Source: an uncultured Bacillota bacterium
GTDB lineage: Bacteria > Bacillota_I > Bacilli_A > RF39 > UBA660
Direction: 5' to 3'
Assembly (NCBI GenBank): GCA_945928335.1
Contig: CAMENK010000001.1
Coordinates: 1 to 32,894 of the forward strand
Length of the DNA stretch: 32,894 nt
Below the pieces are notes generated by a model that did no database searches, was not told the origin of the DNA, and saw only the letters and a list, made by a program, of their open reading frames with translations. This document shows, one piece after another, positions 3,074 to 22,416 of the stretch. The position numbers and the translations under genes were made by a program. Positions within the stretch are counted from its first letter, which is position 1, and the number at the start of each line of letters is the position of its first letter.

Positions 3074-4114
3074 ATGAATTTTAATGTAGGTGGTCATAAT
3101 GTATTTTTAATAGTATTAGTTACATTTATTAGTTCAGTTATATTTGTACAATTAAGTAAGTTAATTGCTTTACATACTGGTATTATGGATTATCCTAATA
3201 AAAGAAGTGCTCATAAGAAACCTACTCCTTTATTAGGCGGTATAGGAATATTCTTAACTTTTTTATTAGGTTATATTTTATTTGGTAAAGAGAGTACTTT
3301 GATGTTGTCTATTTTAATTGCCTCTTTTTTGATATTATTATTAGGCATTTTTGATGATATTAAACCAATACCTGCTAGATATAAAATTATAATTCATATA
3401 TTAGTTGCTGCTGTTGTTGTGTTTTATGGAGGATTAAGATTAACACATTTTGATTTATTTGGATACTATGTTAATTTTGGTAAATGGTCTTATCCTATAA
3501 CAATTATAGTTATTGTGTCTATTATAAATGCAATAAATTTAATCGATGGTTTAGATGGTTTATGTGCTGGGATTAGTTCTATATATTTTTTAACTATTGG
3601 TATTATTGCCTTAATTTTAAATAATTTGGGTGGTCTAGATATTATTTTATCTTTTATTATGTTTGGTTCTACTTTAGGATTTTTGGTTCATAATTTTCCA
3701 CCAGCAAAAATATTTATGGGTGATACGGGAAGTACATTTTTAGGACTAATGATTAGTGTTATTATGTTACTCGGATTTAAGACTGTTACTTTAACTAGTT
3801 TAATTATTCCTATGGTACTTTTAATACTTCCTATAACTGATACTTTATTTGCTATTATTAGAAGAACTATACATAAGAGACCTATTGGGGAAGCAGATAA
3901 GGAACATATTCATCATCAATTATTAAAAAAATTAAGTACTAGAAAGACTATTATTGTTATATATATTATTGAAATTATATTTAGTGTTATTACTATTTTA
4001 TATAGTATTGGTTATAGAAAAGAAATGATTATTTTCTATATATTACTTGCATTTTTAATTTTGTTTTTGGTTTTTAAAACTAATGTTATTTTTGATAATA
4101 AGGAGAAAAAATGA
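3074..4114 (+). CDS. tagO: undecaprenyl-phosphate N-acetylhexosamine-1-phosphate transferase (MraY/WecA/TagO family)
   Basis: 346-aa polytopic ORF with FDDIKP, INLIDGLDGL, HNFPPAKIFMGDTGS motifs of the polyprenyl-phosphate HexNAc-1-P transferase family. Confidence 0.9.
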   Translation: MNFNVGGHNVFLIVLVTFISSVIFVQLSKLIALHTGIMDYPNKRSAHKKPTPLLGGIGIFLTFLLGYILFGKESTLMLSILIASFLILLLGIFDDIKPIPARYKIIIHILVAAVVVFYGGLRLTHFDLFGYYVNFGKWSYPITIIVIVSIINAINLIDGLDGLCAGISSIYFLTIGIIALILNNLGGLDIILSFIMFGSTLGFLVHNFPPAKIFMGDTGSTFLGLMISVIMLLGFKTVTLTSLIIPMVLLILPITDTLFAIIRRTIHKRPIGEADKEHIHHQLLKKLSTRKTIIVIYIIEIIFSVITILYSIGYRKEMIIFYILLAFLILFLVFKTNVIFDNKEKK

Positions 4115-5079
4115 AAATATGTATTTTGGGTTGTGGTGCTTATGGTTTAGCACTTGCAAGTATTTTTAATAAGAATAAACAAAATGTTGTAATGTGGACT
4201 TTTAGTAATGATGAAGAAATTTTACTTAACGATAAGCGTGAAAGTGATAAACTTTTAGGTTATAAAATTCCTAATGAAATTAAAATAACTTCTAGTATTA
4301 AACGTGCGATTAAGAATAGTAATCTAGTTGTTATTGCTGTTCCTGCTTTTGCAGTTGATAGTGTGGCTTCTATGATTGGTAATTTAGTTACTAAAGATAT
4401 GCATATTTTACTTGCAACTAAAGGCATAGAAAATGATACATGTGATTTTTTAACTGATGTTTTAGAAAGATATATTACTAGTAATAAGATTGCTGTTATT
4501 TCTGGACCTACATTTGCTAAAGATATAGTTTTAGGAGTACCAATTGGGTTAAGTCTTGCAACTACTAATGTGAGAACTAAGAATTTTATAAAGAAAGTAA
4601 TGGAAAGTGATACTACTAAATTAAGAGATACTCAAGATGTTATTGGTGTACAAATATGTGGGGCAATTAAAAATGTTATGGCTATTGCTTCAGGTATGCT
4701 TGAAGGTATGGATGTTACTGATTCAACTAAAGCTTTGTTTTTAACTGAAAGTTTAAATGATATAAAAGAACTTATTGATGCTTTAGGTGGCAATAAAAAA
4801 ACTATTTTATCATTTAGTGGTTTTGGTGATATTCTTATGACTTGTACTAGTTCTAATAGTAGAAATTTTACTTATGGAAAGTTGATTGGAGAAGATAGAT
4901 TGGAAGAAGCTACTAACTATTCTAAAAATACTACAGTTGAAGGCTTATATACTTTAAGATCTATAAAGGAACTTATTAAACGTGAGCGTGTTAAGATGCC
5001 TATTGTTGATTTGATAAGTGATATTATAATTGGTAAAAAGAGTAAAGAAGATATGTTAAAGTTTTTAATAGAAAAATAA
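4111..5079 (+). CDS. gpsA: NAD(P)H-dependent glycerol-3-phosphate dehydrogenase
   Basis: N-terminal ILGCGAYGLALA Rossmann motif and GAIKNVMAIASG segment. AAGGAG SD upstream. The ATG overlaps the tagO TGA (ATGA at 4111-4114). Confidence 0.9.
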   Translation: MKICILGCGAYGLALASIFNKNKQNVVMWTFSNDEEILLNDKRESDKLLGYKIPNEIKITSSIKRAIKNSNLVVIAVPAFAVDSVASMIGNLVTKDMHILLATKGIENDTCDFLTDVLERYITSNKIAVISGPTFAKDIVLGVPIGLSLATTNVRTKNFIKKVMESDTTKLRDTQDVIGVQICGAIKNVMAIASGMLEGMDVTDSTKALFLTESLNDIKELIDALGGNKKTILSFSGFGDILMTCTSSNSRNFTYGKLIGEDRLEEATNYSKNTTVEGLYTLRSIKELIKRERVKMPIVDLISDIIIGKKSKEDMLKFLIEK

Positions 5080-5080
5080 T

Positions 5081-5108
5081 GTTATGAACAAAATCATAAC
5101 TTTTTTTG
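5081..5108 (+). terminator. intrinsic terminator after gpsA
   Basis: GTTATGA (5081-5087) / TCATAAC (5094-5100) hairpin followed by a run of 7 T. Confidence 0.7.
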
Positions 5109-5183: not shown

Positions 5184-6116
5184 ATGAAAGATTTTATAAG
5201 TGTAATTATTCCTATACATAATAGTGAGAAATATCTTGAAAAGTGTATTAAAAGTGTTTTAAATCAGAGTTATGTTAAACTTGAGATTTTGTGTGTTGTG
5301 AATGGTTGCACAGATAATAGTTTAGCTATTTTGGATAAGTATAAAAATAGAATAAAAATTTTAATACAAGAAGAAGCAAATTTAAGCTTAGCTAGGAATA
5401 CTGGTATTAAGTTTTCTACTGGTGAGTATATTACATTTGTTGATAGTGATGATTATCTAGAATTTACTTATTTTGAAGAACTTTATAATAATATTATTAG
5501 AGAAAAAAGTGATTTAAGTATATGTGATTTATGTGAGATTAGAGAGAATACTGATATTGTTATATATAATAATGATTATCCAGTAGTGCCAATTCCAGAG
5601 GTTGAAATTAAAGATAATCTAAATAAATTTAGATTAGGTCCTGTATGTAAATTGTATAAATCAAATATAATAAAAAATAATAATATTTTATTTCCTAATT
5701 TAAAGTATGAAGATATTTATTTTGTATTATCTTATTTACTTAAATGTAATAAAATATCTAAAGTTAATAAGGCACTTTATAATTATGTTATACATTCAAA
5801 TAGTGAGCAAACTACTGTAGATGATAGAATTTTTGATATTTTTAAAGTTATTGATTTATGTGATAATTTAACTAATTTTGATAGTTATTTAGAATTAAAA
5901 ATTGAGATTTTGTCTACTTATTCACTTAAAACTAGATATTTAAAAGATAAAAATTTAAGAAATAAGTTTATAGATGAGGCTTATTTAAGATTAAGTAAAG
6001 TAAATAATTATAAGAAGAGTAATTATATAAAAAGGTGTGGTTTTATTAAAAAGGTTATTTTAAAAAATAAATTCTTAGTGAAATTATATACTGATGTGTA
6101 TTCAATATTTGTTTAA
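5184..6116 (+). CDS. family 2 glycosyltransferase (GT-A fold)
   Basis: N-terminal ISVIIPIHNSEKYL..., SLARNTG, and FVDSDDY (DxD) motifs. Confidence 0.85.
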   Translation: MKDFISVIIPIHNSEKYLEKCIKSVLNQSYVKLEILCVVNGCTDNSLAILDKYKNRIKILIQEEANLSLARNTGIKFSTGEYITFVDSDDYLEFTYFEELYNNIIREKSDLSICDLCEIRENTDIVIYNNDYPVVPIPEVEIKDNLNKFRLGPVCKLYKSNIIKNNNILFPNLKYEDIYFVLSYLLKCNKISKVNKALYNYVIHSNSEQTTVDDRIFDIFKVIDLCDNLTNFDSYLELKIEILSTYSLKTRYLKDKNLRNKFIDEAYLRLSKVNNYKKSNYIKRCGFIKKVILKNKFLVKLYTDVYSIFV

Positions 6117-6157: not shown

Positions 6158-6191
6158 ATTTTATCGAAAAAAGAAAGAAGTGAAAATTTTT

Positions 6192-6815
6192 ATGAAGAAG
6201 TTAAAACCTATTGGAATATATAGAAAGTGTGATTGGGTCACTATGACTGGTACTGCATCAGCTATTTTTGGAATAATTTTAGCATCTGAAGGGAAAACTA
6301 TGTATGCAGTATTTTGCTTAATATTTTCTGCAATTTGTGATGCTTTTGATGGTGTTGTTGCTAGAAGATTTAAGAGTTTAAAAGATTATGAAGTTTATGG
6401 AGTAGAATTAGATTCTTTAAGTGATGCGATTGCATTTGGAGTACTTCCTATGATGATTGTTAGAAATTTAAGTGTTCATAATATTTATACATTACTTGTT
6501 AGCATCTTTTTCTGCTTAACTGGGGTTATTAGACTTGCATATTTTAATATGCTTTCAACTACTAGAAGAAGTGATGGAAAGCAATTTATAGGACTTCCTA
6601 TTACTTGTAGCGCTATTATAATACCTTTGGTATACTTTATTACATTTATAATAGGTAAAGAATATAGAGAGATTATATTTCCAATTACATTATTGGTAAC
6701 AGGAATTTTATATATAAGTCCTTTTAGGTTAAAAAAATTATCTACTAGAGAAAAAGTTGTATTATCAATTATGGGATTACTTGTAATAGCTATTACTTTA
6801 ATAAAAATATGGTAA
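6192..6815 (+). CDS. pssA: CDP-alcohol phosphatidyltransferase, phosphatidylserine-synthase-like
   Basis: Carries the CDP-alcohol phosphatidyltransferase signature D-x2-DG-x2-AR-...-G-x3-D-x3-D (CDAFDGVVARRF...GVELDSLSD) in a small polytopic protein. ATG 6192 is preferred over GTG 6180 on SD spacing. Confidence 0.65.
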   Translation: MKKLKPIGIYRKCDWVTMTGTASAIFGIILASEGKTMYAVFCLIFSAICDAFDGVVARRFKSLKDYEVYGVELDSLSDAIAFGVLPMMIVRNLSVHNIYTLLVSIFFCLTGVIRLAYFNMLSTTRRSDGKQFIGLPITCSAIIIPLVYFITFIIGKEYREIIFPITLLVTGILYISPFRLKKLSTREKVVLSIMGLLVIAITLIKIW

Positions 6816-6854: not shown

Positions 6855-9800
6855 ATGAAAAAGTTGTTTACAAAAGAAAATTTAGTTAATTTATCTTTAA
6901 TATTATATATATTATCTATTTTATTGGATTTACATATTTTTTATAATCCTGTTTCTACTATAATAAGAGTATTTTTTATTTCTATAATATTTTTGATTAT
7001 TAATTTTAAGTTTGGTAATAAAAAAGATAGGAGAATTTTACTTAGTTATTTTGTTTTATTATTTATATATATAATTTTACATTTATTTAGCACTAGTGAG
7101 TTTAATATAGGATTTAATATTACTTATAATATATATGAAGAATTATTGTATTTTCTTAAGATGAGTATGCATATATTGATTATTTATTCTATATATAAAT
7201 TATCTATTTCTAAAGAGAAATTTTATAAAGCTATAGAAATTTCTACATTATTAATAGTTTTAAATATTATTATTTGTAATATTTTTAAAATAGGTTATAC
7301 ATCATATGATTTTAATAGTATTTCTTATAATATATTTGATTGGTTTACTAAAGATATTAACTTTTTAGAGGCATCTTCTAAAGGATATTTTCATTTAACT
7401 AATCAAATATCTGCAATACTTATTTTAGATATGTCTATTATGTTAATAAGTATGAAAGAAAAACAAAAGATTATAAATACTACTACTTTATTTTTAACTA
7501 TTATTGCTTTGTTTATGTTAGGAACTAGGATATCTACTTATTCAGTATTTATTATATTAGGTGTTTCTTTGATAGTATATATTTTAACTGGTATTAGGGA
7601 TAGAAGTATTAAGAAAAGTTTTGTTTTAACACATATTATATTATTGTTGATTTCCTTAGTTTTATATTTTAAATGTCCTCTTATTAGTAGAAATGAATTT
7701 TATTCTAATAAATATAAGGAAAGTGAAAAAAAGACGGAAGATATTGATTTAGAAGATAATATTGAATTAACTGATGAGGAGTTTAAAGATATATTAAAAG
7801 ATTATAATATAGATCCTAAATTTTATAATGAATATTATCCTTTGGAACAAGATAGAGAATTTTATGAAGAATATATTAAATATGATTTATCTAAAGTTAG
7901 TAATGTTAGATTTTTAGAAAAATCTATTATAGAAAGGATTAAATCATTAAATAATAATAAGTATGATAATTTATTTGGTATAGGTTATAATAGAATGATG
8001 AATGTATTTAATATTGAGAGAGATTTTGTTGCTCAGTATTATTCTATTGGTATACTAGGGTGTATTATTATACTTGGTGTTTATATATTATTGTTATTAT
8101 ATTCTTATTTTAAATCTTTATTTAACTTAGAAAAGCATTTTAATTATGTAAATTGTATGTTCTTATTTATACTTAGTTATTTTTTAATTGCTGCTTATTG
8201 TACTGGAAATGTTTTGAATTCCATTAGTTGTATTATTCCATATTCATTTATTTTAGGTTATTATTTATCTATATTAAATAAGAAAGAAAAAACTGAATAT
8301 GAATATATTTTAGGATTTAAGACTTCTACAAAAAATGAGAAAGAGATTTTAAAAGAAACATTTAAATCTGATGAACAAGTTATTTTATATAATATAAATC
8401 CGCTTATTATTATGAATTTTTATAAAAATAAGAAAGCTGTTAAAGAGTTTAATAAACAAGATTTAAATATTCCAGATGGTAATGGTATTATTTTAACTTC
8501 AAAATTAACTAGTGGATGTTTAGCTAATACTATACCTGGGGTTGAATTATTTGAAAGTATATGTAAGGAATCAGTAAAACATAAATATAAAATATATTTA
8601 TATGGAGCTAAACAAAATTCTGTTTATAATACTAAAGTTGGATTAGAGTCAAAATATAAGGGTATTAAAATAGTTGGATATAAGAATGGTTATACTAAAG
8701 AAAAAGAAGTTTTAGAAGATATATTAAAGAAGAAACCTGATATTTTATTTGTTGCTTTAGGTAGTCCTAAACAAGAAAACTTTATTATTAAGAATAAAAG
8801 TAAATTAAAGAAAATCAAAATAATTATGCCAGTTGGTGGAACTTTTGATGTTATAAGTAAGAATACTAAACGCGCACCTTTAATTGTTAGAGATTTAAAA
8901 TTAGAATGGCTTTATAGAATGATTAAAGAGCCTAAGTTATTTAAGAATTTAGGAAAATTTATAAAATATTTCTTTACTGTTTTATTTTTTAATAATCATT
9001 ATAATAAAAAAGTTATTTCTAAAGAAAAAAAGGTTGTTAAGGAAAAAAGTTATAAACTAAGAAAAGTATTGGGTTATTTATGTGTAGCATTACCTTTGTT
9101 AATTTTATTATCAGTTTTATGGGCTAATAAAACTTTTGGTAATCCTGATATTGATGAGATATTATTTACAATGACTAATTCATTAAATGGTACTGATATG
9201 AAGATTATTTTAAGTTATTGTTTATATGCTTTATTACCTGTTATATTATTTACTATTATATATTTTATTCTTTTGAAGATTACTAAAAGAAATGAAAAGT
9301 TCAATAAGATATATTTAATTATAATTCTATTTGGTATAATTATGTGTGGTTTTACCTCATTATATGTAGAAAGAAGATTTTCTATAAAAGAATATGTTTC
9401 TGTAAATAAAACTTCAACTGAGTTTGTAGAAAAAAATTATGTTGCAACTGATTTAGATAATATTAGTTTTCCAGAAGATAAGAATAATTTAATAGTTATA
9501 TATTTAGAATCAATGGAAATGACATTTAGTTCTAAAGAAAATGGAGGATCTTACGATTTTAATTATATTCCTAATCTGACTAAGCTTGCTCAGGAGAATA
9601 TAAACTTTTCTAACTCTGAATTACTTGGTGGTGCTAATTCTATATCTAGTTTATCTTGGACAACAGCTGGATTAGTTGCTACTACATCTGGATTGCCTAT
9701 AAAAACTTCATTTAGAAATGCTAATGATCAAATTTTCGTATTTCCTAATATTAATGCTTTAGGTAATGTTATGCAGGAAAATGGATATAATATGGAATTT

Positions 9801-10478
9801 ATGTTAGGTTCAGATGCATCTTTTGGTGGAATGGAAAATTATTTATTAGCGCATGGTAATTATAAAATATTTGATTTAAAATATGCAAAGGAAAATAATT
9901 TATTAAAAGATATAAAATTGACTTCATGGGGTATTTCTGATAGAGATTTATTTGAATTATCTAAAAAGGAACTAGTAAATTTATCAAATCAAGATAAACC
10001 TTTCTATTTTTCTTTAATGACGATTGATACTCATGCTCCTGAAGGAACATCATATAAAGATTGTAAAAGTGTTTCTGAAGATAAATATTTTAATTCTATT
10101 TATTGTGCTGATATTACTATAAATAGTTTTATAAATTGGCTAAAGGAACAGGATTTTTATGAGAATACAACTATAGTTTTAACAGGAGACCATTTATCTA
10201 TGAGCAGTTTAGTTGAAGTGGATAATCGCTCTATTTATAATGTTATTATAAATTCAAAAGTTGAACCAGAGAATGATAAAAATAGATTATTTACTAATTT
10301 AGATATGTATCCAACCATATTAGCAAGTTTAGGAGTAGAAATAGAAGAAAATCAATTAGGATTAGGTGTTAACTTATTTTCAAATAAAAAAACTTTAGCT
10401 GAAAAATATACATTTGTAGAATTTGTAACTCAAATGAGTTATTATTCAAGGTTTTATAATGATGAACTTCTTAATTAG
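6855..10478 (+). CDS. three-domain fusion: WaaL/Wzy (O-antigen-ligase-like) polytopic domain + WecG/TagA/CpsF GT26 domain + LtaS/OpgB-type phosphoglycerol-transferase (sulfatase-fold) domain
   Basis: Uninterrupted 1207-codon ORF with GAGGAG SD. aa ~1-480 are many TM helices plus the LFGIGYN... segment shared with the ORF at 11445. aa ~485-700 carry PDGNGI, LYGAKQ, FVALGSPKQENFI, MPVGGTFDV, LEWLYRMIKEPK (GT26). After about 3 more helices come LIVIYLESME, SWTTAGLVATTSG, MTIDTHAP, LTGDHLS (alkaline-phosphatase superfamily, LtaS/MdoB-like). Confidence 0.75.
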   Translation: MKKLFTKENLVNLSLILYILSILLDLHIFYNPVSTIIRVFFISIIFLIINFKFGNKKDRRILLSYFVLLFIYIILHLFSTSEFNIGFNITYNIYEELLYFLKMSMHILIIYSIYKLSISKEKFYKAIEISTLLIVLNIIICNIFKIGYTSYDFNSISYNIFDWFTKDINFLEASSKGYFHLTNQISAILILDMSIMLISMKEKQKIINTTTLFLTIIALFMLGTRISTYSVFIILGVSLIVYILTGIRDRSIKKSFVLTHIILLLISLVLYFKCPLISRNEFYSNKYKESEKKTEDIDLEDNIELTDEEFKDILKDYNIDPKFYNEYYPLEQDREFYEEYIKYDLSKVSNVRFLEKSIIERIKSLNNNKYDNLFGIGYNRMMNVFNIERDFVAQYYSIGILGCIIILGVYILLLLYSYFKSLFNLEKHFNYVNCMFLFILSYFLIAAYCTGNVLNSISCIIPYSFILGYYLSILNKKEKTEYEYILGFKTSTKNEKEILKETFKSDEQVILYNINPLIIMNFYKNKKAVKEFNKQDLNIPDGNGIILTSKLTSGCLANTIPGVELFESICKESVKHKYKIYLYGAKQNSVYNTKVGLESKYKGIKIVGYKNGYTKEKEVLEDILKKKPDILFVALGSPKQENFIIKNKSKLKKIKIIMPVGGTFDVISKNTKRAPLIVRDLKLEWLYRMIKEPKLFKNLGKFIKYFFTVLFFNNHYNKKVISKEKKVVKEKSYKLRKVLGYLCVALPLLILLSVLWANKTFGNPDIDEILFTMTNSLNGTDMKIILSYCLYALLPVILFTIIYFILLKITKRNEKFNKIYLIIILFGIIMCGFTSLYVERRFSIKEYVSVNKTSTEFVEKNYVATDLDNISFPEDKNNLIVIYLESMEMTFSSKENGGSYDFNYIPNLTKLAQENINFSNSELLGGANSISSLSWTTAGLVATTSGLPIKTSFRNANDQIFVFPNINALGNVMQENGYNMEFMLGSDASFGGMENYLLAHGNYKIFDLKYAKENNLLKDIKLTSWGISDRDLFELSKKELVNLSNQDKPFYFSLMTIDTHAPEGTSYKDCKSVSEDKYFNSIYCADITINSFINWLKEQDFYENTTIVLTGDHLSMSSLVEVDNRSIYNVIINSKVEPENDKNRLFTNLDMYPTILASLGVEIEENQLGLGVNLFSNKKTLAEKYTFVEFVTQMSYYSRFYNDELLN

Positions 10479-10857
10479 AAAAAGTAATAATAGATTTATT
10501 AAATATTGTATATTTGGAAGCTTAATAAGTATTTTAGAAATTATTTTATATTATGTACTTGCTAAGTATCTACATATTTATCCACTGCTTTCTAATGCAA
10601 TTGCCTTTTTAGTTTCGGTGTCATTGTCTTTTTATGCTAATAGTAAATATGTTTTTAAGACTATGTTTATTAGTAAGAAAAATAAAATTAGAAGCTTTTG
10701 TCTATTTTTAAGCAGTAGAGTAATAGGATTATTTGTGGATTCTTCTATTTTATACTTATTGCTTTATATAAATTGTTCAAATTTAATCGCTAAAACAATT
10801 TCTTGTATTTCTACAACAATTATAAATTATTTTATGGGAAAATATATATTTAAATGA
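10459..10857 (+). CDS. GtrA-family membrane protein
   Basis: 132 aa with 4 predicted helices. N-terminal FIKYCIFGSL... and C-terminal INYFMGKYIFK are typical of GtrA-like proteins. It overlaps the preceding ORF by 20 nt. Confidence 0.7.
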   Translation: MMNFLIRKSNNRFIKYCIFGSLISILEIILYYVLAKYLHIYPLLSNAIAFLVSVSLSFYANSKYVFKTMFISKKNKIRSFCLFLSSRVIGLFVDSSILYLLLYINCSNLIAKTISCISTTIINYFMGKYIFK

Positions 10858-10860
10858 TTT

Positions 10861-10890
10861 AAGTTAAAAGTTTTCTTTTAACTTTTTATT
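10861..10890 (+). terminator. weak AT-only hairpin after the GtrA gene
   Basis: aagttaaaa (10861-10869) / ttttaactt (10876-10884) followed by tttatt. No GC pairs, so weak. Confidence 0.3.
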
Positions 10891-14362: not shown

Positions 14363-15370
14363 ATGAGTATATTTAAAGACAAGGTATTATTAATAACTGG
14401 AGGAACTGGTTCTTTTGGGAATGCAGTATTAAAAAGATTTCTAGATACGGATATCAAAGAAATAAGAATATTTTCTAGAGATGAAAAAAAGCAAGAAGAT
14501 ATGAGAATTAAGTATAAGAATGACAAAATTAAATTTTATATTGGAGATGTTAGAAACTATAGAAGTGTTGAGGATGCAATGGATGGAGTAGATTATATTT
14601 TTCATGCAGCTGCATTAAAACAAGTTCCGTCATGTGAGTTTTTTCCAATAGAGGCGGTTGAAACAAATATTTTGGGAACAAATAATGTTCTTGAGGCAGC
14701 AATAAATCATAATGTAAAAAAAGTAATAGTATTAAGCACTGATAAGGCAGCCTATCCTATAAATGCAATGGGTATGAGTAAAGCCCTTATGGAAAAAGTT
14801 GCAATTGCAAAAGGTAGAAATTTAAGAGACAATCAAACAGTAATATGTAGGACTAGATATGGTAATGTAATGGCTTCTAGAGGTAGTGTTATTCCTTTAT
14901 TTTGTGATCAAATAAATGAAGGATTATCTTTAACTATAACAAATCCTGATATGACTAGATTTATGATGACTTTAGAAGATGCTGTTGATTTAGTAATTTA
15001 TGCTTTTGAACATGGAGAGCAAGGTGATTTGTTTGTTCAAAAAGCACCTGCTGCCACAATTGGAACGTTAGCACAAGCTGTAAAAGAATTAAAGAAAAGC
15101 GACTCTAAAATAAATATTATAGGTACTCGTCATGGTGAAAAATTATATGAAGTATTAGTTACTAAAGAAGAAATGGTTAATGCAGTTGATTTGGGAGATT
15201 ATTATAAAATTCCTGCTGATAATAGAAATCTAAATTATCAAAAATATGAAAATGTAGGAAATAAAAAGCTTGATGATATAGAAGAATATAATTCTCATAA
15301 TACTAGAAGATTGGATGTAGAGGAAATGAAAAAATTGTTGCTTAAATTAGATTTGTTTAAAGAGGAGTAA
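14363..15370 (+). CDS. UDP-GlcNAc 4,6-dehydratase/5-epimerase, CapE/FnlA/WbvB type
   Basis: LITGGTGSFGNA Rossmann motif and the AMGMSKALMEK segment, i.e. the MxxxK variant of the SDR YxxxK triad that distinguishes CapE/FnlA-type enzymes. Confidence 0.8.
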   Translation: MSIFKDKVLLITGGTGSFGNAVLKRFLDTDIKEIRIFSRDEKKQEDMRIKYKNDKIKFYIGDVRNYRSVEDAMDGVDYIFHAAALKQVPSCEFFPIEAVETNILGTNNVLEAAINHNVKKVIVLSTDKAAYPINAMGMSKALMEKVAIAKGRNLRDNQTVICRTRYGNVMASRGSVIPLFCDQINEGLSLTITNPDMTRFMMTLEDAVDLVIYAFEHGEQGDLFVQKAPAATIGTLAQAVKELKKSDSKINIIGTRHGEKLYEVLVTKEEMVNAVDLGDYYKIPADNRNLNYQKYENVGNKKLDDIEEYNSHNTRRLDVEEMKKLLLKLDLFKEE

Positions 15371-15371
15371 T

Positions 15372-16214
15372 ATGAAAAAAATTTTAGTAATCGGAAAAAC
15401 AGGAATGTTAGGACATGTTGTATTTAAGTATTTTGAAAGTAAAGATTATATTGTTGCTGGTACAAGTAGAAAAGAAAAAGATAATTTTTATTTCGATGTT
15501 TTAGATAATTATAAAGCAATTGAAAACATAATTTCTGAATTTCAACCTAATGTTATAATAAATTGTATAGGTGTATTAAATAAAGACGCAGAAGCAAATC
15601 CTGCCAAGGCAATTTTAATAAATAGTTTTTTTCCACATTATTTAGATAATTTGTCAAAAACATATAATTATAAATTGGTTCATATAAGTACTGATTGTGT
15701 ATTTAGTGGAAAGCAAGGAAATTATAATGAAAATAGTGTAAAAGATGCTTATTCTATTTATGGTCAGAGTAAAGCATTAGGAGAAGTTGTTAATGATAGA
15801 AATGTAACTCTTAGAACTTCAATTATAGGGCCAGATATGAACTCGAATGGAATTGGTTTATTTCATTGGTTTATGAATCAGACTGGTGAAATTAAGGGTT
15901 ATGATAAAGTTATTTGGACTGGCGTTACAACTCTAGAATTAGCTAAACAAATTGAGGTTGCAATAAATAATGATTTAGTTGGTTTATATCATGTAGTTAA
16001 TTCTGAAAAAATTGATAAATATAGTCTTTTAAGTCTTATTAAAGATGTGTTTAATAAAGATATAAATATTATTCCTGATTCTTCTGTTATTTCAGACAAA
16101 AGTTTAATTATAACTAGAAATGATTTTAAATTTAATGTTCCAAGTTATGAGGTTATGATTAAAGAAATGAAAGAATGGATTTTGGAAAATAAAGATTTAT
16201 ATATGTATGATTAG
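15372..16214 (+). CDS. RmlD-like SDR 4-reductase (WbvR-like; UDP-2-acetamido-2,6-dideoxy-L-hexos-4-ulose reductase candidate)
   Basis: 280 aa with VIGKTGMLG and HISTDCVFSG...YGQSKALGE, as in dTDP-4-dehydrorhamnose reductases. It is much shorter than CapF/FnlB-type reductases. Confidence 0.65.
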   Translation: MKKILVIGKTGMLGHVVFKYFESKDYIVAGTSRKEKDNFYFDVLDNYKAIENIISEFQPNVIINCIGVLNKDAEANPAKAILINSFFPHYLDNLSKTYNYKLVHISTDCVFSGKQGNYNENSVKDAYSIYGQSKALGEVVNDRNVTLRTSIIGPDMNSNGIGLFHWFMNQTGEIKGYDKVIWTGVTTLELAKQIEVAINNDLVGLYHVVNSEKIDKYSLLSLIKDVFNKDINIIPDSSVISDKSLIITRNDFKFNVPSYEVMIKEMKEWILENKDLYMYD

Positions 16215-16226
16215 GAGAAATAAGTT

Positions 16227-17336
16227 ATGAGAGTAATGACAATAGTTGGTACAAGACCAGAAATAATAAAGTTATCTTGTGTTATAAAAGAATTAGATAA
16301 ATATACTGATCATATTTTAGTTCATACTGGGCAGAATTATGATTATGAGTTAAATCAAGTGTTTTTTGAAGATTTGGGATTGCGTGAGCCGGATGTTTAT
16401 ATGAATGCAGCTGGTAATACTCCTGCCGAAACAATTGGGAATGTAATTAAAATTTCTGATGATTTATTTAAAAAGTATAAACCTGATGCAGTTTTGCTTT
16501 ATGGTGATACTAATTCATGTTTAGCAGTTATTTCGGCTAAAAGAAACAAAATACCTGTTTTTCATATGGAAGCTGGAAATAGATGTTTTGATGAAAGAGT
16601 TCCTGAAGAAATAAATAGAAAAATACTAGACCATTTAAGTGATATAAATATGACATTAACTGAACATGCTAGAAGGTATTTAATAGCTGAAGGTATTAAG
16701 CCAGAAACTATTATTAAAACAGGTTCTAGTATGAAAGAAGTTTTTGAAATGAATAAAGAAAAAATTGAAAATAGTGATGTTCTTAATAGATTGGGATTAG
16801 AAAAAAATGAATACTTTGTTTTAAGTACTCACAGAGAAGAAAATGTTGATAATCTAGACAACTTTAATAAATTATTAGAATCAATAAATAAAGTTGCTGA
16901 AGTGTATAAAATGCCGATAGTATTTAGTGTTCATCCTAGAACAAGAAAAAAAATAGAAGAAATTGGTTTTGAATTTAATCCTTTAGTTAAATATATGAAA
17001 CCTTTAGGTTTTAATGATTATAATAAACTTCAAATGAATGCATTTTGTGTTATTAGTGATAGTGGGACTATTACTGAAGAATCTTCTTTATTAGGTTTTC
17101 CAGCAATAACTGTTCGTCAAGCTCATGAAAGACCTGAGGGAATGGATGAAGGGACTTTAATTATGAGTGGAGTGGATTCAGATACTATCATAGATTCTAT
17201 TAAGGTTGTTACTGATCAAAATGTAAAAATGAATGTTGTTAAAGATTATGATGTAGATCATTTAGCAAGTAAAGTGGTAAGAATAATAATGAGTTATACT
17301 GGCTATATTAATAGAACAGTTTGGAAAAAGTATTAA
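16227..17336 (+). CDS. non-hydrolysing UDP-N-acetylhexosamine 2-epimerase (FnlC/WbvD/CapG-like)
   Basis: MTIVGTRPEIIKL N-terminus, YGDTNS, HMEAGNRCFD, HREEN, and DSGTITEES motifs of the WecB/MnaA epimerase fold. Confidence 0.85.
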   Translation: MRVMTIVGTRPEIIKLSCVIKELDKYTDHILVHTGQNYDYELNQVFFEDLGLREPDVYMNAAGNTPAETIGNVIKISDDLFKKYKPDAVLLYGDTNSCLAVISAKRNKIPVFHMEAGNRCFDERVPEEINRKILDHLSDINMTLTEHARRYLIAEGIKPETIIKTGSSMKEVFEMNKEKIENSDVLNRLGLEKNEYFVLSTHREENVDNLDNFNKLLESINKVAEVYKMPIVFSVHPRTRKKIEEIGFEFNPLVKYMKPLGFNDYNKLQMNAFCVISDSGTITEESSLLGFPAITVRQAHERPEGMDEGTLIMSGVDSDTIIDSIKVVTDQNVKMNVVKDYDVDHLASKVVRIIMSYTGYINRTVWKKY

Positions 17337-17350
17337 AGTAGGTGATTGAC

Positions 17351-19096
17351 ATGAAAAATAAACCATTGGTATCAATTATTATTCCAGTTTATAATGGAGA
17401 AGATTATGTTAAAGAAGCAATTGATAGTGCTTTAAATCAAACTTATGATAATAAAGAAATTATCGTTGTAAATGATGGTAGTTTTGATAAAACTGAAACT
17501 ATATGTTTAAAATATGGTAAAAAGATTAAATATTTTTCTAAGGAAAATGGTGGGGTATCTACTGCACTTAATTTAGCTATAAAAAAAGCTTCTGGAGAAT
17601 ATATATCTTGGTTAAGTCACGATGATTTATATTATCCTAATAAAATAGAAGATGAAGTAAAAATAGCAAATAATAATACTATTATTTATAGTGATTATGA
17701 TTTGATAGATGAGAATGGAAATAATATTGGGAATATAATTTTACCTCATGAAAAATTAGAAAATAAAAATTCTTTACCTCTTATGAAGGGACTTATAAAT
17801 GGAATAACATTGTTAATACCTAAAAAAGCTTTTATTGATTGTGGTGAGTTTAATATAGATTTAAAATGTACTCAAGATTATGATATGTGGTTTAGAATGT
17901 TGACAAAAGGTTATAATTTTGTACATCTAGAGCAGTCTTTAGCATCATCTCGTCAACACAGAAATCAAACAACTAATACGAGTACTAAAATGGTTAGTGA
18001 AGGAAATACACTTTGGAAGAATATGACATTTAATATGCCAAAGGATATCATTTTAAAAGATTTTAAAACAGAATATTCTTTTTATAAACAGGTTGCTAGT
18101 GTTTTAAAATTTTCGCCTTATCAAGAAGCTTATAAATCAGTTGTGAAAAAATTTGATAGTCTAGATAGAACTATTGATGTTTCTAATAAAAAAGTTAGTG
18201 TAATTATTCCTTTTTATGATGAAAGTATTGATATAATTAAAAGAGCAGTAACTTCGGTTATTGAACAAACTCATAAAAATTTAGAAATTTTGCTAATAAA
18301 TGATAATCCTACTAATTATAAAAGGAAATCAATAAATGAAATTTTAACTGATAAGAGAATTAAATATATAGAAAATAAGAAAAATTCTGGTGTTTCTTTT
18401 TCTAGAAATTTTGGAATATCTAAAGCTACAGGAGATTATATTGCCTTTTTAGATGCTGATGATGTTTTTATGAAGGATAAGATTGAAATTCAATTGGAAG
18501 AATTGGAAAGAAATCAGGCTGTTTTTTCACATACTTCCTATATTTTACATACTGAAGATTCTGAAACTATTATGAATTCTGGAGAACAAGATGGAGATAT
18601 ATTAAGAGAAATTATTACTTGTTGTAGAATTGCTACACCTACTGTAATGATAAAAAAGAGTGTATTTGATGAACATGGATATTCTTTTGAAGAAAAAATA
18701 GGAATTGGTGAAGATAATTGTTTATGGATGGATATTTTAATAAATTATGAAGCTGTTGGAATTAATAAACCTCTTTCAATTGTTTATGTTGATGAACAAA
18801 GTGCGGCTTATAATAATGATAAGCAATATATTGGATTAAAAAATATTTTGATTCACGCTTTAAACGATTCTAGAATAAATAAATATAAAAAAGAAGTTTG
18901 TTTGTTGGCATATAATTTTTCTCGTACTAATTTATATTTAAGTAATGATGATTATGAACTTCAAAGTATTTTAAATAGCAGATCATGGAAAATCACTAAA
19001 CCGTTAAGACTAGCAAGTAAAACTGTAAGGTCTTTGAAAGAAAATGGTTTTAAACGTACAATGATTTTAATTAAAAGGCATATATGCAAAAAATAA
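17351..19096 (+). CDS. two-domain family 2 glycosyltransferase (tandem GT-A modules)
   Basis: Module 1: VSIIIPVYNGEDYV...WLSHDDLY. Module 2: VSVIIPFYDES...FLDADDVF. The start is placed at ATG 17351 (the GTG 17342 alternative adds 3 aa). Confidence 0.8.
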   Translation: MKNKPLVSIIIPVYNGEDYVKEAIDSALNQTYDNKEIIVVNDGSFDKTETICLKYGKKIKYFSKENGGVSTALNLAIKKASGEYISWLSHDDLYYPNKIEDEVKIANNNTIIYSDYDLIDENGNNIGNIILPHEKLENKNSLPLMKGLINGITLLIPKKAFIDCGEFNIDLKCTQDYDMWFRMLTKGYNFVHLEQSLASSRQHRNQTTNTSTKMVSEGNTLWKNMTFNMPKDIILKDFKTEYSFYKQVASVLKFSPYQEAYKSVVKKFDSLDRTIDVSNKKVSVIIPFYDESIDIIKRAVTSVIEQTHKNLEILLINDNPTNYKRKSINEILTDKRIKYIENKKNSGVSFSRNFGISKATGDYIAFLDADDVFMKDKIEIQLEELERNQAVFSHTSYILHTEDSETIMNSGEQDGDILREIITCCRIATPTVMIKKSVFDEHGYSFEEKIGIGEDNCLWMDILINYEAVGINKPLSIVYVDEQSAAYNNDKQYIGLKNILIHALNDSRINKYKKEVCLLAYNFSRTNLYLSNDDYELQSILNSRSWKITKPLRLASKTVRSLKENGFKRTMILIKRHICKK

Positions 19097-20217
19097 CTAT
19101 TTTAGCGTTGCACTTAGATTTTGGCGGTATTGAAAAATATATTTCTCTTTTATGTAAAATGTTTGAAAAGGATTTTGATATAGAAATAATTTCAACTTAT
19201 AAATTTAGAGAAATACCGGCTTTTAATTTTGATAATAATATTAAGATTAAATATTTGATTACTGATAATTTAGAAAATGTTTCTATAAAGAAATTATTAA
19301 AAAATAAAAAATTTATAAAAATATTAAAAGAGATTTTAAGAAGGAGTAAAATTAAAAGATTAGCAAAAACTTCAAATATTAAAGTTATACAATCTTTGGC
19401 TTCAGATTATGTTATTACTACTAGAACATTTCATAATTCTTTAGTTAATAAATATTTAAAGAATAGTAATATCATTAAGATTGCTACTGAACATAATTAT
19501 CATAATAATGATAGAAAGTATATAAAAAAATTTATTAAATCCGTAACTAATTTTGATTATGTAGTTCATTGTACACAAGAATTATATGATTTTTATAAAG
19601 ATAAAATTAAAAATGCTAAGAATATTTTAATACCAAATCCTGTTTATATTGAAGGTAATAATATATCTAGTTTAAATAATAAAAATATTTTAGCCGTAGG
19701 GAGAATTTCTCCTGAAAAAGGTTTTTTTGATTTAGTGGATGTAATGGAGATTGTTAATTCTTTAGATAAAGATATTTATTTAACTATTTGTGGTGATGGA
19801 TATCAAATTAGTGATCTTAAAAGTTATATTGAATCTAAAAAATTAGACAAGAATATAATCGTAACTGGATTCTTAGGTGGAAAAGATTTGGAGAATAAAT
19901 ATTTAAATGCTTCAACTTTTGTTATGACTTCTATAACTGAAGCATTTGGATTGGTTATATTAGAGGCAATGCATTATGGATTACCTTGTATTTCTTTTAG
20001 TAGTGCGTCTGGTGCAAGATATTTATTAAAAGATAGTACAGGAATTCTTATAGATAATAGAAACAAGGATAAGATGGCAAGAACAATTATAGATTTATTA
20101 AACGATAAAAATTCTTTGTTATATTATCAAAATAAAAGTCTTAACAAGGTTAAGGAATTTGATTTAGAACATATTTATAAAAAATGGAAAGATTTGATTT
20201 TTGATAAAGTAAATTAA
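19084..20217 (+). CDS. family 4 (GT-B) glycosyltransferase
   Basis: C-terminal half has VGRISPEKGF and EAFGLVILEAMHYGLPCI (the EX7E region). It overlaps the preceding gene by 13 nt. Confidence 0.8.
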   Translation: MQKITILALHLDFGGIEKYISLLCKMFEKDFDIEIISTYKFREIPAFNFDNNIKIKYLITDNLENVSIKKLLKNKKFIKILKEILRRSKIKRLAKTSNIKVIQSLASDYVITTRTFHNSLVNKYLKNSNIIKIATEHNYHNNDRKYIKKFIKSVTNFDYVVHCTQELYDFYKDKIKNAKNILIPNPVYIEGNNISSLNNKNILAVGRISPEKGFFDLVDVMEIVNSLDKDIYLTICGDGYQISDLKSYIESKKLDKNIIVTGFLGGKDLENKYLNASTFVMTSITEAFGLVILEAMHYGLPCISFSSASGARYLLKDSTGILIDNRNKDKMARTIIDLLNDKNSLLYYQNKSLNKVKEFDLEHIYKKWKDLIFDKVN

Positions 20218-20262
20218 TCTTTATTGTTTATTATAAAAAAATTGTTTATAATATTTTTATTA

Positions 20263-20294
20263 AAAATAAAATTTAAAATAATTTTATTTTTTTT
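20263..20294 (+). terminator. AT-only hairpin terminator between the two GT4 paralogues
   Basis: aaaataaaatt (20263-20273) / aattttatttt (20280-20290), a perfect 11 bp, followed by TTTT. Confidence 0.4.
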
Positions 20295-20312
20295 AATATA
20301 TATTTATTTACG

Positions 20313-20321
20313 TGATATAAT
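20313..20321 (+). promoter_or_regulatory. extended -10 promoter element (TGATATAAT) for the GT4::Alg14 / Alg13 unit
   Basis: TGnTATAAT lies 18 nt upstream of ATG 20339, which has AAAGGAG SD. Confidence 0.45.
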
Positions 20322-20338
20322 AAAAGAAAAGGAGTATT

Positions 20339-21940
20339 ATGAAAAAGATTACAATTTTATCTTTACATTTAGGTGTTGGTGGTATAGAAAAATATATAAC
20401 TAGTTTGAGTAAAATGCTTAGTTCTGATTATGAAGTAGAAATGATTATAACTTATAAACTTAAGGAAGTACCTTCATTTAATATAGGAAAAAATATAAAA
20501 ATAACATATTTAATTGATGGTGGGCCTAATAGGGATGAAATAAGAAAATGTGTAAAAAGGCATAAATATTTAAAATTATTAAAGGAAATTATAAAAGCTA
20601 TTAAAATTTTATATTTAAAAAGGGCAAGAACTAAAAAGGCAATTAAAAATTTGGAAACTGACTATTTAATTACTACTAGAACATATGAAACTAAATTAGC
20701 AAATAAAATTCTTAAAAATAATAAAGTTAAGTTAATTGCTACTGATCATAATTACCCTGATAAAAAATATAAAACTAAATTAATAAAGGCTACTACTAAT
20801 TTTGATAGATTAGTTTTAGTAAATAGTGAAATAAGAGATATTTATAAACAAGAAATTGGATTAAAAGCTATATGTATAAATAATTTTATTGATGACTTAT
20901 CTAAAGAGAAGAGTAATTTAGGTACTAAAAATATTATATCGGTTGGTAGATTTTCTAAGGAGAAGGGCTTTATTGATTTAATTGATATAATGTCTTTGAT
21001 AATAAAAAAAGATAATAAAGTTACTTTGACTTTAGTAGGAGATGGAGAAGAAAAAGAAAATATTCAAAATAGAATAAAGGAATTGAAACTTGAAAATAAC
21101 ATAAAGTTAACTGGATATCTAAATCAAGAAGAAATAAAAAGTGAGTTATTAAAATCTAGTCTTTTTTGTATGACTAGTGAAGTAGAAAGTTTTGGCTTAG
21201 TAATATTGGAAGCAATGAATCTAGGAGTACCTGTAGTTGCTTTTGAATCTGCATGTGGTCCAAGAGTACTTCTTAGAAATGGAGCGGGTATTTTAATAAA
21301 AGAACGTAATAAAGAAGATTTTGCTAATTGTGTATTAGATTTACTTAATAATAAAAGTAAATTGAAGAAATTATCTGATTTGTCTAAAAAGGAGATTGAA
21401 AATTATACTTCAGATGTAATAAAACAAGAGTGGTTAAAATTATTAAATGATGTAAATAAATTATCACGCAAAAAAGTAATGTTTATATCTAGTACTGGAG
21501 GACATTTAAATGAACTTTTAATGTTAAAGAGCATGTTTAACAAGTATAACTATTTTTTAATTACTGAAAATACTGCTTCTAATAAAAATTTAAAAAATAA
21601 GTATGGTAAAAAGAAAGTTGGATTTTTAGTGTACGGGACTAGAAAACATATTTTTTCTTATATTTTTAAAATTATTTTTAATAGTTTTAAAAGTTTATAT
21701 TATTTTATAAAAATTAGACCTAGTTTTATTGTTTCAACTGGTGCTCATACTGCTGGACCGATGTGCTTAATTGGACATCTTTTAGGGGCTAAAATAATTT
21801 TTATTGAAACATTTGCAAATAGTGAAACTAAAACTATTACTGGAAGTTTAGTTTATAAATTTGCTGATTTGTTTATAGTTCAGTGGGAAAGTATGCTAGA
21901 AAATTATCCTAATGCTGTGTTTGGAGGTTGGATATATTGA
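20339..21940 (+). CDS. fusion of a GT4 glycosyltransferase (paralogue of 19084-20217) with a C-terminal Alg14-like half-glycosyltransferase domain
   Basis: aa 1-~370 align by eye with the previous GT4 (MKKITILSLHLGVGGIEKYI vs MQKITILALHLDFGGIEKYI; VGRFSKEKGF; ESFGLVILEAM). aa ~375-533 (VMFISSTGGHLNELL...STGAHTAGP...IFIETFAN) resemble Alg14/Cps14F/EpsE-type proteins. Confidence 0.7.
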   Translation: MKKITILSLHLGVGGIEKYITSLSKMLSSDYEVEMIITYKLKEVPSFNIGKNIKITYLIDGGPNRDEIRKCVKRHKYLKLLKEIIKAIKILYLKRARTKKAIKNLETDYLITTRTYETKLANKILKNNKVKLIATDHNYPDKKYKTKLIKATTNFDRLVLVNSEIRDIYKQEIGLKAICINNFIDDLSKEKSNLGTKNIISVGRFSKEKGFIDLIDIMSLIIKKDNKVTLTLVGDGEEKENIQNRIKELKLENNIKLTGYLNQEEIKSELLKSSLFCMTSEVESFGLVILEAMNLGVPVVAFESACGPRVLLRNGAGILIKERNKEDFANCVLDLLNNKSKLKKLSDLSKKEIENYTSDVIKQEWLKLLNDVNKLSRKKVMFISSTGGHLNELLMLKSMFNKYNYFLITENTASNKNLKNKYGKKKVGFLVYGTRKHIFSYIFKIIFNSFKSLYYFIKIRPSFIVSTGAHTAGPMCLIGHLLGAKIIFIETFANSETKTITGSLVYKFADLFIVQWESMLENYPNAVFGGWIY

Positions 21941-22416
21941 TATTTGTGACGGTTGGTACTCAAGATGTACCTTTTGATAGATTATTAAAAGAAGTTGATA
22001 AATGTATAATTGATGGGACAATAAAGGAAGAAGTTATAGTTCAGTCAGGTAATACTAAATTTAAATCTAAAAATATGAAGATGGTTAATTTATTACCTAT
22101 GGAGGATTTTAAAAAGATTATTAGTGAGGCTAGTATTATAATTGCGCATGGTGGGGTTGGTACTATTACTGATGGAATATCTAACGATAAAGTAGTTATT
22201 GCATGTCCTCGACTTGCTAAATATAAAGAGGCTGTAAACGATCACCAAATTCAAATTATTAAGCAATTTGATAAAATGGGTTTTATAATTCCTTTATATA
22301 ATCCTAAAGAATTGAAAATAGCTTTAGAAAGGGCAAAGGAATTCAAAATAAAAAAATATAGGAGTAATACTTCTAATATGATTAAACTAATAGAAAAATT
22401 TATTGATAACAATTAA
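21937..22416 (+). CDS. Alg13-like glycosyltransferase C-terminal half-domain (Cps14G/EpsF/PssE-like)
   Basis: (M)IFVTVGTQDVPFDRLL N-terminus and AHGGVGTI are typical of GT28-C/Alg13-like proteins. The start is placed at TTG 21937, which has GGAGG 9 nt upstream and forms a TTGA overlap with the preceding stop. The table start 21928 would abut the SD. Confidence 0.7.
   Translation: MIFVTVGTQDVPFDRLLKEVDKCIIDGTIKEEVIVQSGNTKFKSKNMKMVNLLPMEDFKKIISEASIIIAHGGVGTITDGISNDKVVIACPRLAKYKEAVNDHQIQIIKQFDKMGFIIPLYNPKELKIALERAKEFKIKKYRSNTSNMIKLIEKFIDNN

Follow-up and report, generated by a model that had tools for sequence, protein, structure and literature searches.

In Escherichia coli, OpgB decorates glycan with glycerol phosphate (GroP) taken from phosphatidylglycerol. 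Streptococcal GacH, a GroP transferase of the LtaS superfamily with 11 transmembrane (TM) segments, is inferred to use the same donor (bioRxiv 10.1101/337519). In Bacillus anthracis, the secondary cell-wall polymer (SCWP) is made by a pathway of TagO, TagA and LCP (LytR-CpsA-Psr) enzymes, and two proteins of the Pfam family PF13425, WpaA and WpaB, are anticipated, with no experimental proof of activity, to polymerise and ligate it (PMC6030368). TacL of Streptococcus pneumoniae, a Wzy_C protein, makes lipoteichoic acid (LTA) from a precursor shared with wall teichoic acid (WTA), the wall form being made by LCP enzymes (PMC5727136). The uncultured orders RF39, RFN20 and ML615J-28 are predicted to be mostly walled and to lack the standard WTA and LTA pathways (PMC10868615). 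Here we analyse a glycopolymer locus at positions 3074-22416 of a 32,894-nucleotide stretch of DNA from an uncultured Bacillota bacterium (the whole stretch is called the window), which encodes a WaaL-fold domain, a TagA domain and an OpgB/LtaS-class domain in a single 1207-aa protein.

We regard it as probable (roughly 0.6) that the locus produces a peptidoglycan-attached secondary cell-wall heteropolysaccharide, made by an ATP-binding cassette (ABC) transporter-dependent route and phospho-decorated outside the cell, with PF13425 proteins serving as ligase and/or polymerase and an LCP enzyme encoded elsewhere. Initiation by TagO, addition of N-acetylmannosamine (ManNAc) by TagA, supply of a deoxy-hexosamine, chain building by GT2 and GT4 glycosyltransferases and ABC export are the predicted steps that are robust by both family and fold. 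The chain would begin on undecaprenyl phosphate through TagO, receive ManNAc from the cytoplasmic TagA domain and be extended by the GT2 and GT4 enzymes; it would include N-acetyl-6-deoxy-L-hexosamine (from FnlA-, RmlD- and WecB-like enzymes) and O-acetyl groups. A TagG/TagH-type (Wzm-Wzt-type) ABC transporter would then export the lipid-linked polymer. Outside, the OpgB/LtaS-class domain, with Thr936 and a metal site (E885, D1112, H1113), would move a phospho-head group from a membrane phospholipid to the glycan, a transfer that would make the polymer anionic with no need of CDP-glycerol enzymes. On the outer face, the two PF13425 proteins would ligate and/or polymerise undecaprenyl-diphosphate-linked material, a plausible reaction being the joining of the exported chain to a linkage unit made by TagO and TagA; the presence of one WaaL-fold domain in the same polypeptide as TagA is in keeping with a reaction that involves such a unit. 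Finally, judging from relatives only, an LCP enzyme encoded elsewhere would attach the polymer to peptidoglycan. A peptidoglycan-attached product is the most likely one because an LCP gene adjoins the locus in two relatives, and LtaS, FemAB or TagF/TarI genes lie near others. An earlier reading, made from the letters of the window (the sequence-only reading), had recognised here a non-classical, TagO/TagA-primed and ABC-exported glycopolymer locus devoid of CDP-glycerol enzymes, which the domain, fold and tblastn evidence bears out.

The locus and its three-domain protein

Gene content was assigned by Pfam and NCBIfam scans of open reading frames (ORFs) of at least 80 aa. All those from 3074 to 22416 lie on the + strand, in keeping with the "almost entirely co-directional" locus described earlier, and they are tightly packed, with intergenic gaps of at most 126 bp and six overlapping gene pairs. 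Every gene named in the sequence-only reading was recovered; its inventory had lacked one, the PssA-like CDP-alcohol phosphatidyltransferase at 6180-6815, which is recognised by Pfam, NCBIfam and PDB matches.

3074-4114, + strand: TagO/WecA-type polyprenyl-phosphate N-acetylglucosamine (GlcNAc)-1-phosphate transferase, the initiator (PF00953, E 2e-38)
4111-5079, + strand: GpsA, NAD(P)H-dependent glycerol-3-phosphate dehydrogenase (NF000942, 285 bits, above the cut-off of 257)
5184-6116, + strand: soluble GT2 glycosyltransferase with no TM segment (PF00535, E 4e-30)
6180-6815, + strand: PssA-like CDP-alcohol phosphatidyltransferase (PF01066, E 1e-13)
6855-10478, + strand: 1207-aa fusion gene, O-antigen_lig + WecG/TagA + Sulfatase (Pfam domains)
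10459-10857, + strand: GtrA-family small membrane protein, overlapping the 3' end of the fusion gene (PF04138, E 3e-17)
10928-11461, + strand: hexapeptide-repeat acetyltransferase of the WbbJ/Mat type (PF00132, E 8e-13; WbbJ model, E 1e-19)
11445-12692, + strand: stand-alone WaaL-fold PF13425 protein of 415 aa (PF13425, E 2e-52; Wzy_C, E 7e-7)
12809-13609, + strand: ABC-2 permease of the TagG/Wzm type (PF01061, E 2e-15; Wzm model, E 2e-17)
13620-14351, + strand: ABC ATPase of the TagH/Wzt type (TagH and Wzt models, E 2e-60)
14363-17336, + strand: FnlA-like 4,6-dehydratase/epimerase, RmlD-like reductase and WecB-type 2-epimerase (NCBIfam models)
17342-19096, + strand: double GT2 glycosyltransferase (Pfam/NCBIfam)
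19084-20217, + strand: GT4 glycosyltransferase (Pfam/NCBIfam)
20339-21940, + strand: GT4::Alg14 fusion (Pfam/NCBIfam)
21928-22416, + strand: Alg13 (Pfam/NCBIfam)

The initiator, with about 10 TM segments, is best matched in NCBIfam by wecA (E 6e-41), with mraY behind at 1.5e-22, and its gene overlaps gpsA by 4 nt. The ABC ATPase is of the short form, lacking the C-terminal glycan-binding domain; inspection of start codons places its likely start at the ATG at 13620, with an AGGAGG site ahead. The enzymes resembling FnlA (E 6e-175, 581 bits), RmlD (E 1e-25) and WecB (250 bits, above the cut-off of 210) constitute, by family assignment, a predicted pathway to UDP-2-acetamido-2,6-dideoxy-L-hexose, the WecB-type 2-epimerase being possibly also the source of UDP-ManNAc for TagA. 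The glycosyltransferases encoded at 17342-22416 are predicted to build the chain.

Genes missing from the window were sought by tblastn in six frames with LCP, TagF-type, TarI-type, LtaS and Wzx proteins from related loci. No frame of the window gave a match to LCP, TarI or Wzx, and no ORF of at least 80 aa in the window gave a Pfam match to TagB/TagF (PF04464) or TagD/TarI. The LtaS query matched the sulfatase domain of the fusion only (25% identity), and the sole TagF match in the window (E 2e-5), a 31-aa stretch within the double GT2 gene, does not represent a TagF gene. The absence of LCP, TagB/D/F-type and Wzx genes noted earlier thus holds across all six frames. The 31-aa stretch (18920-19012), C-terminal in the double GT2 protein, shares 58% identity with a segment of the TagF-type protein from a related locus, L056; it may be a common membrane-association or interaction segment.

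The fusion protein is divided as follows.

aa 1-474, 6855-8276, + strand: domain 1, WaaL-fold PF13425 with 12 TM segments (PF13425, E 5e-37)
aa 482-719, 8298-9011, + strand: domain 2, cytoplasmic GT26 TagA/TarA-type ManNAc transferase (PF03808, E 4e-48; TarA model, E 7e-38)
aa 738-837, 9066-9365, + strand: three TM helices (hydropathy peaks at 738-756, 789-807 and 819-837)
aa 870-1207, 9462-10478, + strand: domain 3, extracytoplasmic OpgB/LtaS-class phospho-headgroup transferase (PF00884, E 1e-22)

The Pfam matches themselves span aa 29-472 (O-antigen_lig), 536-696 (WecG/TagA) and 878-1159 (Sulfatase). In an AlphaFold (AF2) model of residues 1-720, with a mean pLDDT of 87.9, Foldseek matched the GT26 part to the TarA/TagA structures 5wb4, 7mpk and 7n41 (TM-score 0.88, 36-38% identity), and the only significant match of the membrane part was WaaL 7tpg_B (E 5e-4, probability 1.0, TM-score 0.53). 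As modelled, 12 TM segments with both termini inside would be followed by the cytoplasmic GT26 domain, three further TM helices and the sulfatase-type domain outside; this order, together with the charge distribution, makes the fusion topologically coherent. An independent assembly contains, with the same neighbours, a 1207-aa protein that is 96% identical and has eight member sequences, so the fusion is not an assembly artefact. Look-ups by exact sequence with the window's fusion protein and with Psd gave no match.

The three-domain form was seen in this species only. An exhaustive HMMER search returned about three full-length 50%-identity clusters of O-antigen_lig::WecG proteins with no representative covering all three domains, and the longest matches included no other protein in which an OpgB-like domain is joined to a glycopolymer enzyme. 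The sulfatase has its own gene within the locus in L055 and the sister species L061, so that its fusion to TagA in the species of the window is recent. The three-domain arrangement suggests that the steps are physically coupled.

The stand-alone PF13425 protein, which has more than 541 homologues, is paralogous to domain 1 of the fusion (hhalign probability 99%, E 9e-18). Its structural model also finds WaaL 7tpg_B first (E 4e-3, probability 1.0), with SEDS proteins weakly behind, and the TM-scores of the two PF13425 domains to 7tpg_B are just 0.45-0.53. In the PDB, neither the single sequence of the WaaL-fold domain nor its profile aligned to WaaL, the only matches being to streptococcal AgI/II adhesins at chance level; the comparison with WaaL was therefore made by motif spacing against Wzy_C-type GT26 fusions of other bacteria (P0065, P0071), which keep the motif H-N-x9-G-x2-G. 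At the position of its His stand Glu388 in the fusion and Glu333 in the stand-alone protein; with this spacing the two domains, like other PF13425 proteins, read E-R-D and E-M-D. E. coli WaaL requires R215, R288 and H338, which PglL-type enzymes keep (PMC3643930). Neither PF13425 domain has this Arg/Arg/His set, Glu taking the place of His, and the paralogues have no invariant His in common; R225 (K208 in the paralogue) may be the counterpart of WaaL R215. The conserved polar residues of fusion domain 1 (D25, H27, R225, R352, E355, N386, E388, D390 and N452, the first eight of them invariant) all lie in outer loops, which argues that the domain is catalytic on the outer side of the membrane and is not just there to anchor TagA. 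The WaaL-like domains of the sequence-only reading are thus genuine members of the WaaL/Wzy superfamily (Pfam E-values of 5e-37 and 2e-52, WaaL 7tpg as top structure), and neither is a canonical ligase. The possibility that they are unrelated transporters is excluded by the PF13425 matches and by WaaL as the best fold. The change from His to Glu marks a PF13425 subgroup worth biochemical study.

The sulfatase domain had been described as LtaS-like. In line with that description, it is by family a phospho-headgroup transferase that faces outward and keeps its active site intact, but it lies much closer to OpgB/MdoB (185.7 bits) than to LtaS (46.6 bits). Two OpgB models match (E 2e-54 and 3e-42, the better one over aa 747-1180, TM helices included), compared with E 2e-12 for the LtaS model, and among PDB sequences an uncharacterised Vibrio protein, 3lxq, comes first (1e-25), with LtaS at 3e-10. 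Three TM helices are found here, as opposed to the five of LtaS_N, and the LtaS score compares with a cut-off of 970; the OpgB score is itself well under the equivalog cut-off of 572. Across 55 sulfatase-domain homologues, the residues E885, T936, H1060, D1112 and H1113 do not vary. Four of them, E885/T936/D1112/H1113, correspond to the residues that bind the metal and supply the Thr nucleophile in LtaS (E255/T300/D475/H476) and GacH (E488/T530/D711/H712; bioRxiv 10.1101/337519), so that the domain looks, from its residues, catalytically competent.

By analogy with OpgB, the closest family, and with GacH/SccH, the transferred head group would most likely be GroP from phosphatidylglycerol. The CDP-alcohol enzyme matches NCBIfam models of pssA/archaetidylserine synthase (E 1e-25 to 1e-31, under the cut-offs) and, as best PDB entry, Methanocaldococcus jannaschii PssA (7pow/7b1k, 6e-14). 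We had considered it as a PgsA that would close a phosphatidylglycerol supply module, a candidacy dropped because the protein is PssA-like and has no PgsA match. Lipid genes stand amid the glycopolymer genes: psd (120-983), PAP2 (980-1633, - strand), gpsA and the pssA-like gene, and just upstream in the same species, at 2307-3236 of L054, a DgkB-like diacylglycerol kinase (DAGK_cat). They could serve donor supply or recycling for the external transferase, or be a plain membrane-lipid neighbourhood.

Related loci and competing readings

The nearest genomes are metagenome-assembled genomes labelled uncultured "Bacilli", "Firmicutes" or "Tenericutes", from animal and human guts; the related loci fetched from them have 23.5-26.6% G+C, and the window about 24%. 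The two-domain O-antigen_lig::WecG protein (about 725 aa) forms 58 clusters at 90% identity, and the order TagO, O-antigen_lig::WecG, ABC-2 permease, ABC ATPase is kept in five related loci at 37-66% identity. TagO orthologues (54-86% identical) head every related locus, the ABC-2 permease is 66-86% identical in all of them, and the glycosyltransferases 3' of this conserved core vary from locus to locus. The GT2 protein of 5184-6116 has a 72%-identical orthologue in L061 that adjoins the sulfatase gene; L055 has a PssA-like protein (83% identity), GtrA in the same position (66%) and a CsaB-type pyruvyl transferase; and the acetyltransferase and stand-alone WaaL-fold genes form a conserved pair in L061 and L025 (75% identity).

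An LCP gene lies directly upstream of TagO in L055, its product showing a weak PASTA-domain match, and in L062 the orthologue of the stand-alone WaaL-fold gene sits between an LCP gene, its immediate upstream neighbour, and a full-length LtaS gene. TagF-type and TarI-type genes occur in L056, FemAB in L060, and a spore-coat YutH-family protein (Pfam match only) is also found in related loci. The WaaL-fold::TagA fusion is thus present with or without an adjacent LCP gene, and, judged by gene content, the relatives resemble walled Gram-positives that have LCP enzymes of the ordinary kind. Comparison across related genomes, as advocated in the sequence-only reading, upheld a conserved TagO/fusion/ABC core and, against that reading, placed LCP genes next to the locus in L055 and L062.

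In three related species, a co-directional pair of secreted proteins, a dockerin protein and then a cadherin-like protein, is encoded directly upstream of the TagO locus (L055 1-2930; L056 5482-8664; L057 2511-5693; L062 4881-8126, - strand). The dockerin protein has a weak or clear SH3_3 match in two of the three species, and the pair, which tblastn did not find in the window, may bind the polymer or be glycosylated by it. HAD-phosphatase::GtrA fusions occur in both related and unrelated GT26-fusion loci (L058 18696-20319; L063 15804-16829); that of L058 directly adjoins a CDP-alcohol phosphatidyltransferase, hinting at a recurring GtrA/lipid-head-group module.

Several observations weigh against a peptidoglycan-attached, externally GroP-decorated heteropolysaccharide. 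No LCP gene is present in the window, nor in 6 kb of upstream sequence from the same species, and the role of the WaaL-fold proteins is unproven even in the B. anthracis precedent. Glu at the canonical catalytic His position of both domains implies that their chemistry may differ from that of WaaL. The glycerol-binding residues H347 and R356 of LtaS are not kept in the sulfatase domain, the aligned residues being L984 and M993, and phosphoethanolamine from phosphatidylethanolamine is a serious alternative to GroP, given the pssA-like and psd genes and the upstream DgkB-like kinase in the neighbourhood. Moreover, gpsA adjoins TagO only in loci that also carry an OpgB-like sulfatase gene, but these positive loci form one subclade (TagO 72-86% identical, compared with 54-59% in the negatives), so that the co-occurrence counts as a single observation and may reflect one ancestral event. 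We had taken it as independent evidence for GroP transfer and downgraded it for this reason.

Four other readings of the locus were weighed. The TagA-fused domain would, in the first, be a Wzy-like polymerase acting at the outer face on undecaprenyl-diphosphate-linked blocks made by TagO and TagA, with the stand-alone paralogue as ligase, or the reverse. Wzy_C::WecG and O-antigen_lig::GT4::WecG fusions do occur in Wzx-containing loci of other lineages (L063, L064), and the CsaB-type pyruvyl transferase of L055 fits the model for such a scheme, the pyruvylated ManNAc-GlcNAc cell-wall polymers, whose polymerisation is an open question with PF13425 proteins as named candidates (PMC6030368). We nevertheless consider a polymerase of this kind unlikely: in all loci of the window's family the fusion is directly followed by an ABC-2 exporter and Wzx is missing, ABC routes normally complete the chain in the cytoplasm, and the window encodes six further glycosyltransferase domains, as expected of cytoplasmic chain growth.

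Slightly less likely again is transfer of the exported polymer by the WaaL-fold domain from undecaprenyl diphosphate to a membrane glycolipid, giving a TacL-type, LTA-like macroamphiphile instead of or beside the wall form. The WaaL-superfamily fold with conserved residues on the outer face, the precedent of TacL (PMC5727136), the lack of an LCP gene in the window or just upstream and the predicted lack of standard WTA/LTA pathways in related uncultured orders (PMC10868615) would all suit such a product. It was also the proposal of the sequence-only reading, in which WaaL-like ligases replaced LCP enzymes and the polymer was lipid-anchored, and for which we found no specific support. LCP adjoins the locus of the same fusion in L055, and L062 has its own LCP gene and a canonical LtaS; with LCP genes next to the locus in relatives, the chief argument for a lipid anchor falls away. 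No glycolipid-anchor synthase is recognisable in the locus, where the GT4 proteins match such models at E 1e-8 to 1e-13, far below the cut-offs, and the domains, set against TacL by description, belong to PF13425 with Glu at the His position. A bolder version, which we hold to be improbable, would make the Glu-type WaaL-fold::TagA protein a new class of Gram-positive glycopolymer ligase that anchors an ABC-exported, externally phospho-decorated polysaccharide to a membrane lipid in wall-reduced gut Bacilli without standard WTA or LTA. Were this lipid-anchoring ligase real, the 1207-aa protein would be a single-polypeptide assembly line, with the linkage unit made inside and ligation and charging taking place outside, and the product an undescribed type of LTA-like polymer.

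It is very improbable that the locus glycosylates surface proteins, with the WaaL-fold domain as an O-oligosaccharyltransferase of the PglL/WsaB type, transferring the ABC-exported glycan to proteins of the S-layer or elsewhere on the surface. PglL-type enzymes do belong to the same superfamily (PMC3643930), and the secreted SH3_3/dockerin and cadherin-like pair lies just upstream of the TagO locus in three relatives, but that pair is absent from the window, SH3_3 equally fits proteins that bind a wall polymer, the catalytic His of PglL/WaaL is replaced by Glu, and TagA together with the adjacent LCP genes of relatives points to wall attachment. A Gram-negative-type O-antigen locus ligating its polymer to lipid A-core, as the familiar set of WecA, GT26, Wzm/Wzt and WaaL-like proteins and the OpgB-like domain might evoke, is barely conceivable and was rejected: the closest genomes are assemblies labelled Bacilli/Firmicutes/Tenericutes, Firmicutes-type relatives in which lipid A is not expected as acceptor, related loci carry LCP, PASTA, LtaS, FemAB and the YutH-family protein (Pfam match only), and Pfam/NCBIfam found no lipopolysaccharide or outer-membrane genes in the window. 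A peptidoglycan-attached heteropolysaccharide therefore remains the reading that we prefer.

Locus boundaries and surroundings

Two hairpins delimit the locus.

2935-2963, + strand: terminator-like hairpin with a 13-bp stem and T-rich tail, the left locus boundary, ending the upstream transporter gene
22420-22435, + strand: terminator-like hairpin and T-tract, the right locus boundary, a centroid hairpin on folding

The left hairpin is the strongest structure when 2930-3075 is folded, and these two, flanking the locus, are the only G+C-containing terminator hairpins outside coding sequence. Folding of the gaps further showed AU-only hairpins with U-tracts after gpsA (5081-5107) and GtrA (10861-10890), both with z about -2.5, and a less convincing one after the GT4 gene (about 20262-20295); each is followed by a TGnTATAAT-like box. 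The consensus terminator scan missed them because it demands three G-C pairs; they may act as terminators or attenuators inside the locus, of a kind typical for a genome with 24% G+C. A scan for promoter consensus sites gave 158 sites compared with 172 expected from shuffling, hence not above chance, and Rfam had zero matches in the window. The division of the locus into several promoter- and terminator-bounded units, as first proposed, is thus weakly supported: the AU-only hairpins after gpsA and GtrA speak for it, the promoter counts and the flanking position of the G+C-containing terminators against it.

GC skew is strongly positive (0.19-0.51 per kb) throughout the window (1-32894) and nearly all genes are on the + strand, consistent with the leading strand of one replichore in a highly strand-biased genome. 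On the 3' side of YebC, the stretch 29604-32894 has genes for NERD/HRDC, DUF1294 and zinc-ribbon proteins, and an incomplete phage-integrase ORF on the - strand (32507-32782). In the same species, whose contig JAIFIL010000097.1 (assembly GCA_019973035.1) carries the locus too, a contig of 87.5 kb (L065, GCA_019973035.1) stops exactly after YebC, which suggests a strain-variable or mobile stretch.

Comparison with known systems

With classical WTA synthesis in Bacillus subtilis and Staphylococcus aureus the locus shares TagO, the TagA fold (TM-score 0.88 to TarA/TagA) and a TagGH-type exporter; it differs in having no TagB/TagF (PF04464) and no TagD/TarI, their place being taken by heteropolysaccharide glycosyltransferases and WaaL-fold proteins. 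The B. anthracis SCWP pathway has in common with it TagO/TagA priming, two PF13425 membrane proteins and LCP as the last enzyme (here, in relatives), but uses a MATE-like flippase where the locus has an ABC-2 exporter; the locus differs further in its PF13425::TagA fusion and its phospho-headgroup transferase. The likeness to WpaA and WpaB is one of shared PF13425 family assignment and of pathway description.

The streptococcal rhamnopolysaccharide clusters (GAC and SCC) with GacH/SccH resemble the locus in their TagO-type initiator, ABC exporter, lack of CDP-glycerol enzymes and addition of charge outside, whereas rhamnan genes are absent here, TagA makes the linkage unit and WaaL-fold proteins are present. 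GacH itself differs in its 11 TM segments, against three in the OpgB-like clade found here, and no GacH chain was among the PDB matches at E<=1e-3. The best family-level match to the C-terminal 460 residues, TM helices included, is to E. coli OpgB (MdoB), phosphoglycerol transferase I (E 1.6e-54); the host and acceptor glycan are different, and here the unit is one domain of a three-part protein that scores 185.7 bits against the cut-off of 572. S. pneumoniae TacL is likewise a Gram-positive WaaL/Wzy_C-superfamily protein acting on an undecaprenyl-diphosphate-linked teichoic-type chain alongside LCP enzymes (PMC5727136), but it is a stand-alone Wzy_C protein dependent on the TacF flippase, in contrast to PF13425 domains with Glu and no evident anchor-glycolipid genes.

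If the organism of the window belongs to RF39, RFN20 or ML615J-28, as G+C content and the names of the nearest assemblies would suggest, the locus is a candidate for the replacement anionic wall polymer of these orders, by a candidate route in which TagO and TagA prime the chain, an ABC transporter exports it and a membrane phospholipid provides the charge on the outside. The WaaL-fold::TagA(::phosphotransferase) protein, linking three steps, would offer a testable handle on the role of PF13425 proteins such as WpaA and WpaB in Gram-positive wall-polymer assembly; we found no description of a WaaL-fold::TagA fusion in the literature. The individual elements all have precedents, in WTA synthesis (TagO/TagA/TagGH), in GacH/SccH and OpgB, in the paired PF13425 proteins of B. 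anthracis and in TacL. What is new is their combination, together with the lineage-wide WaaL-fold::TagA fusion and the species-specific three-domain protein with its Glu-for-His signature.

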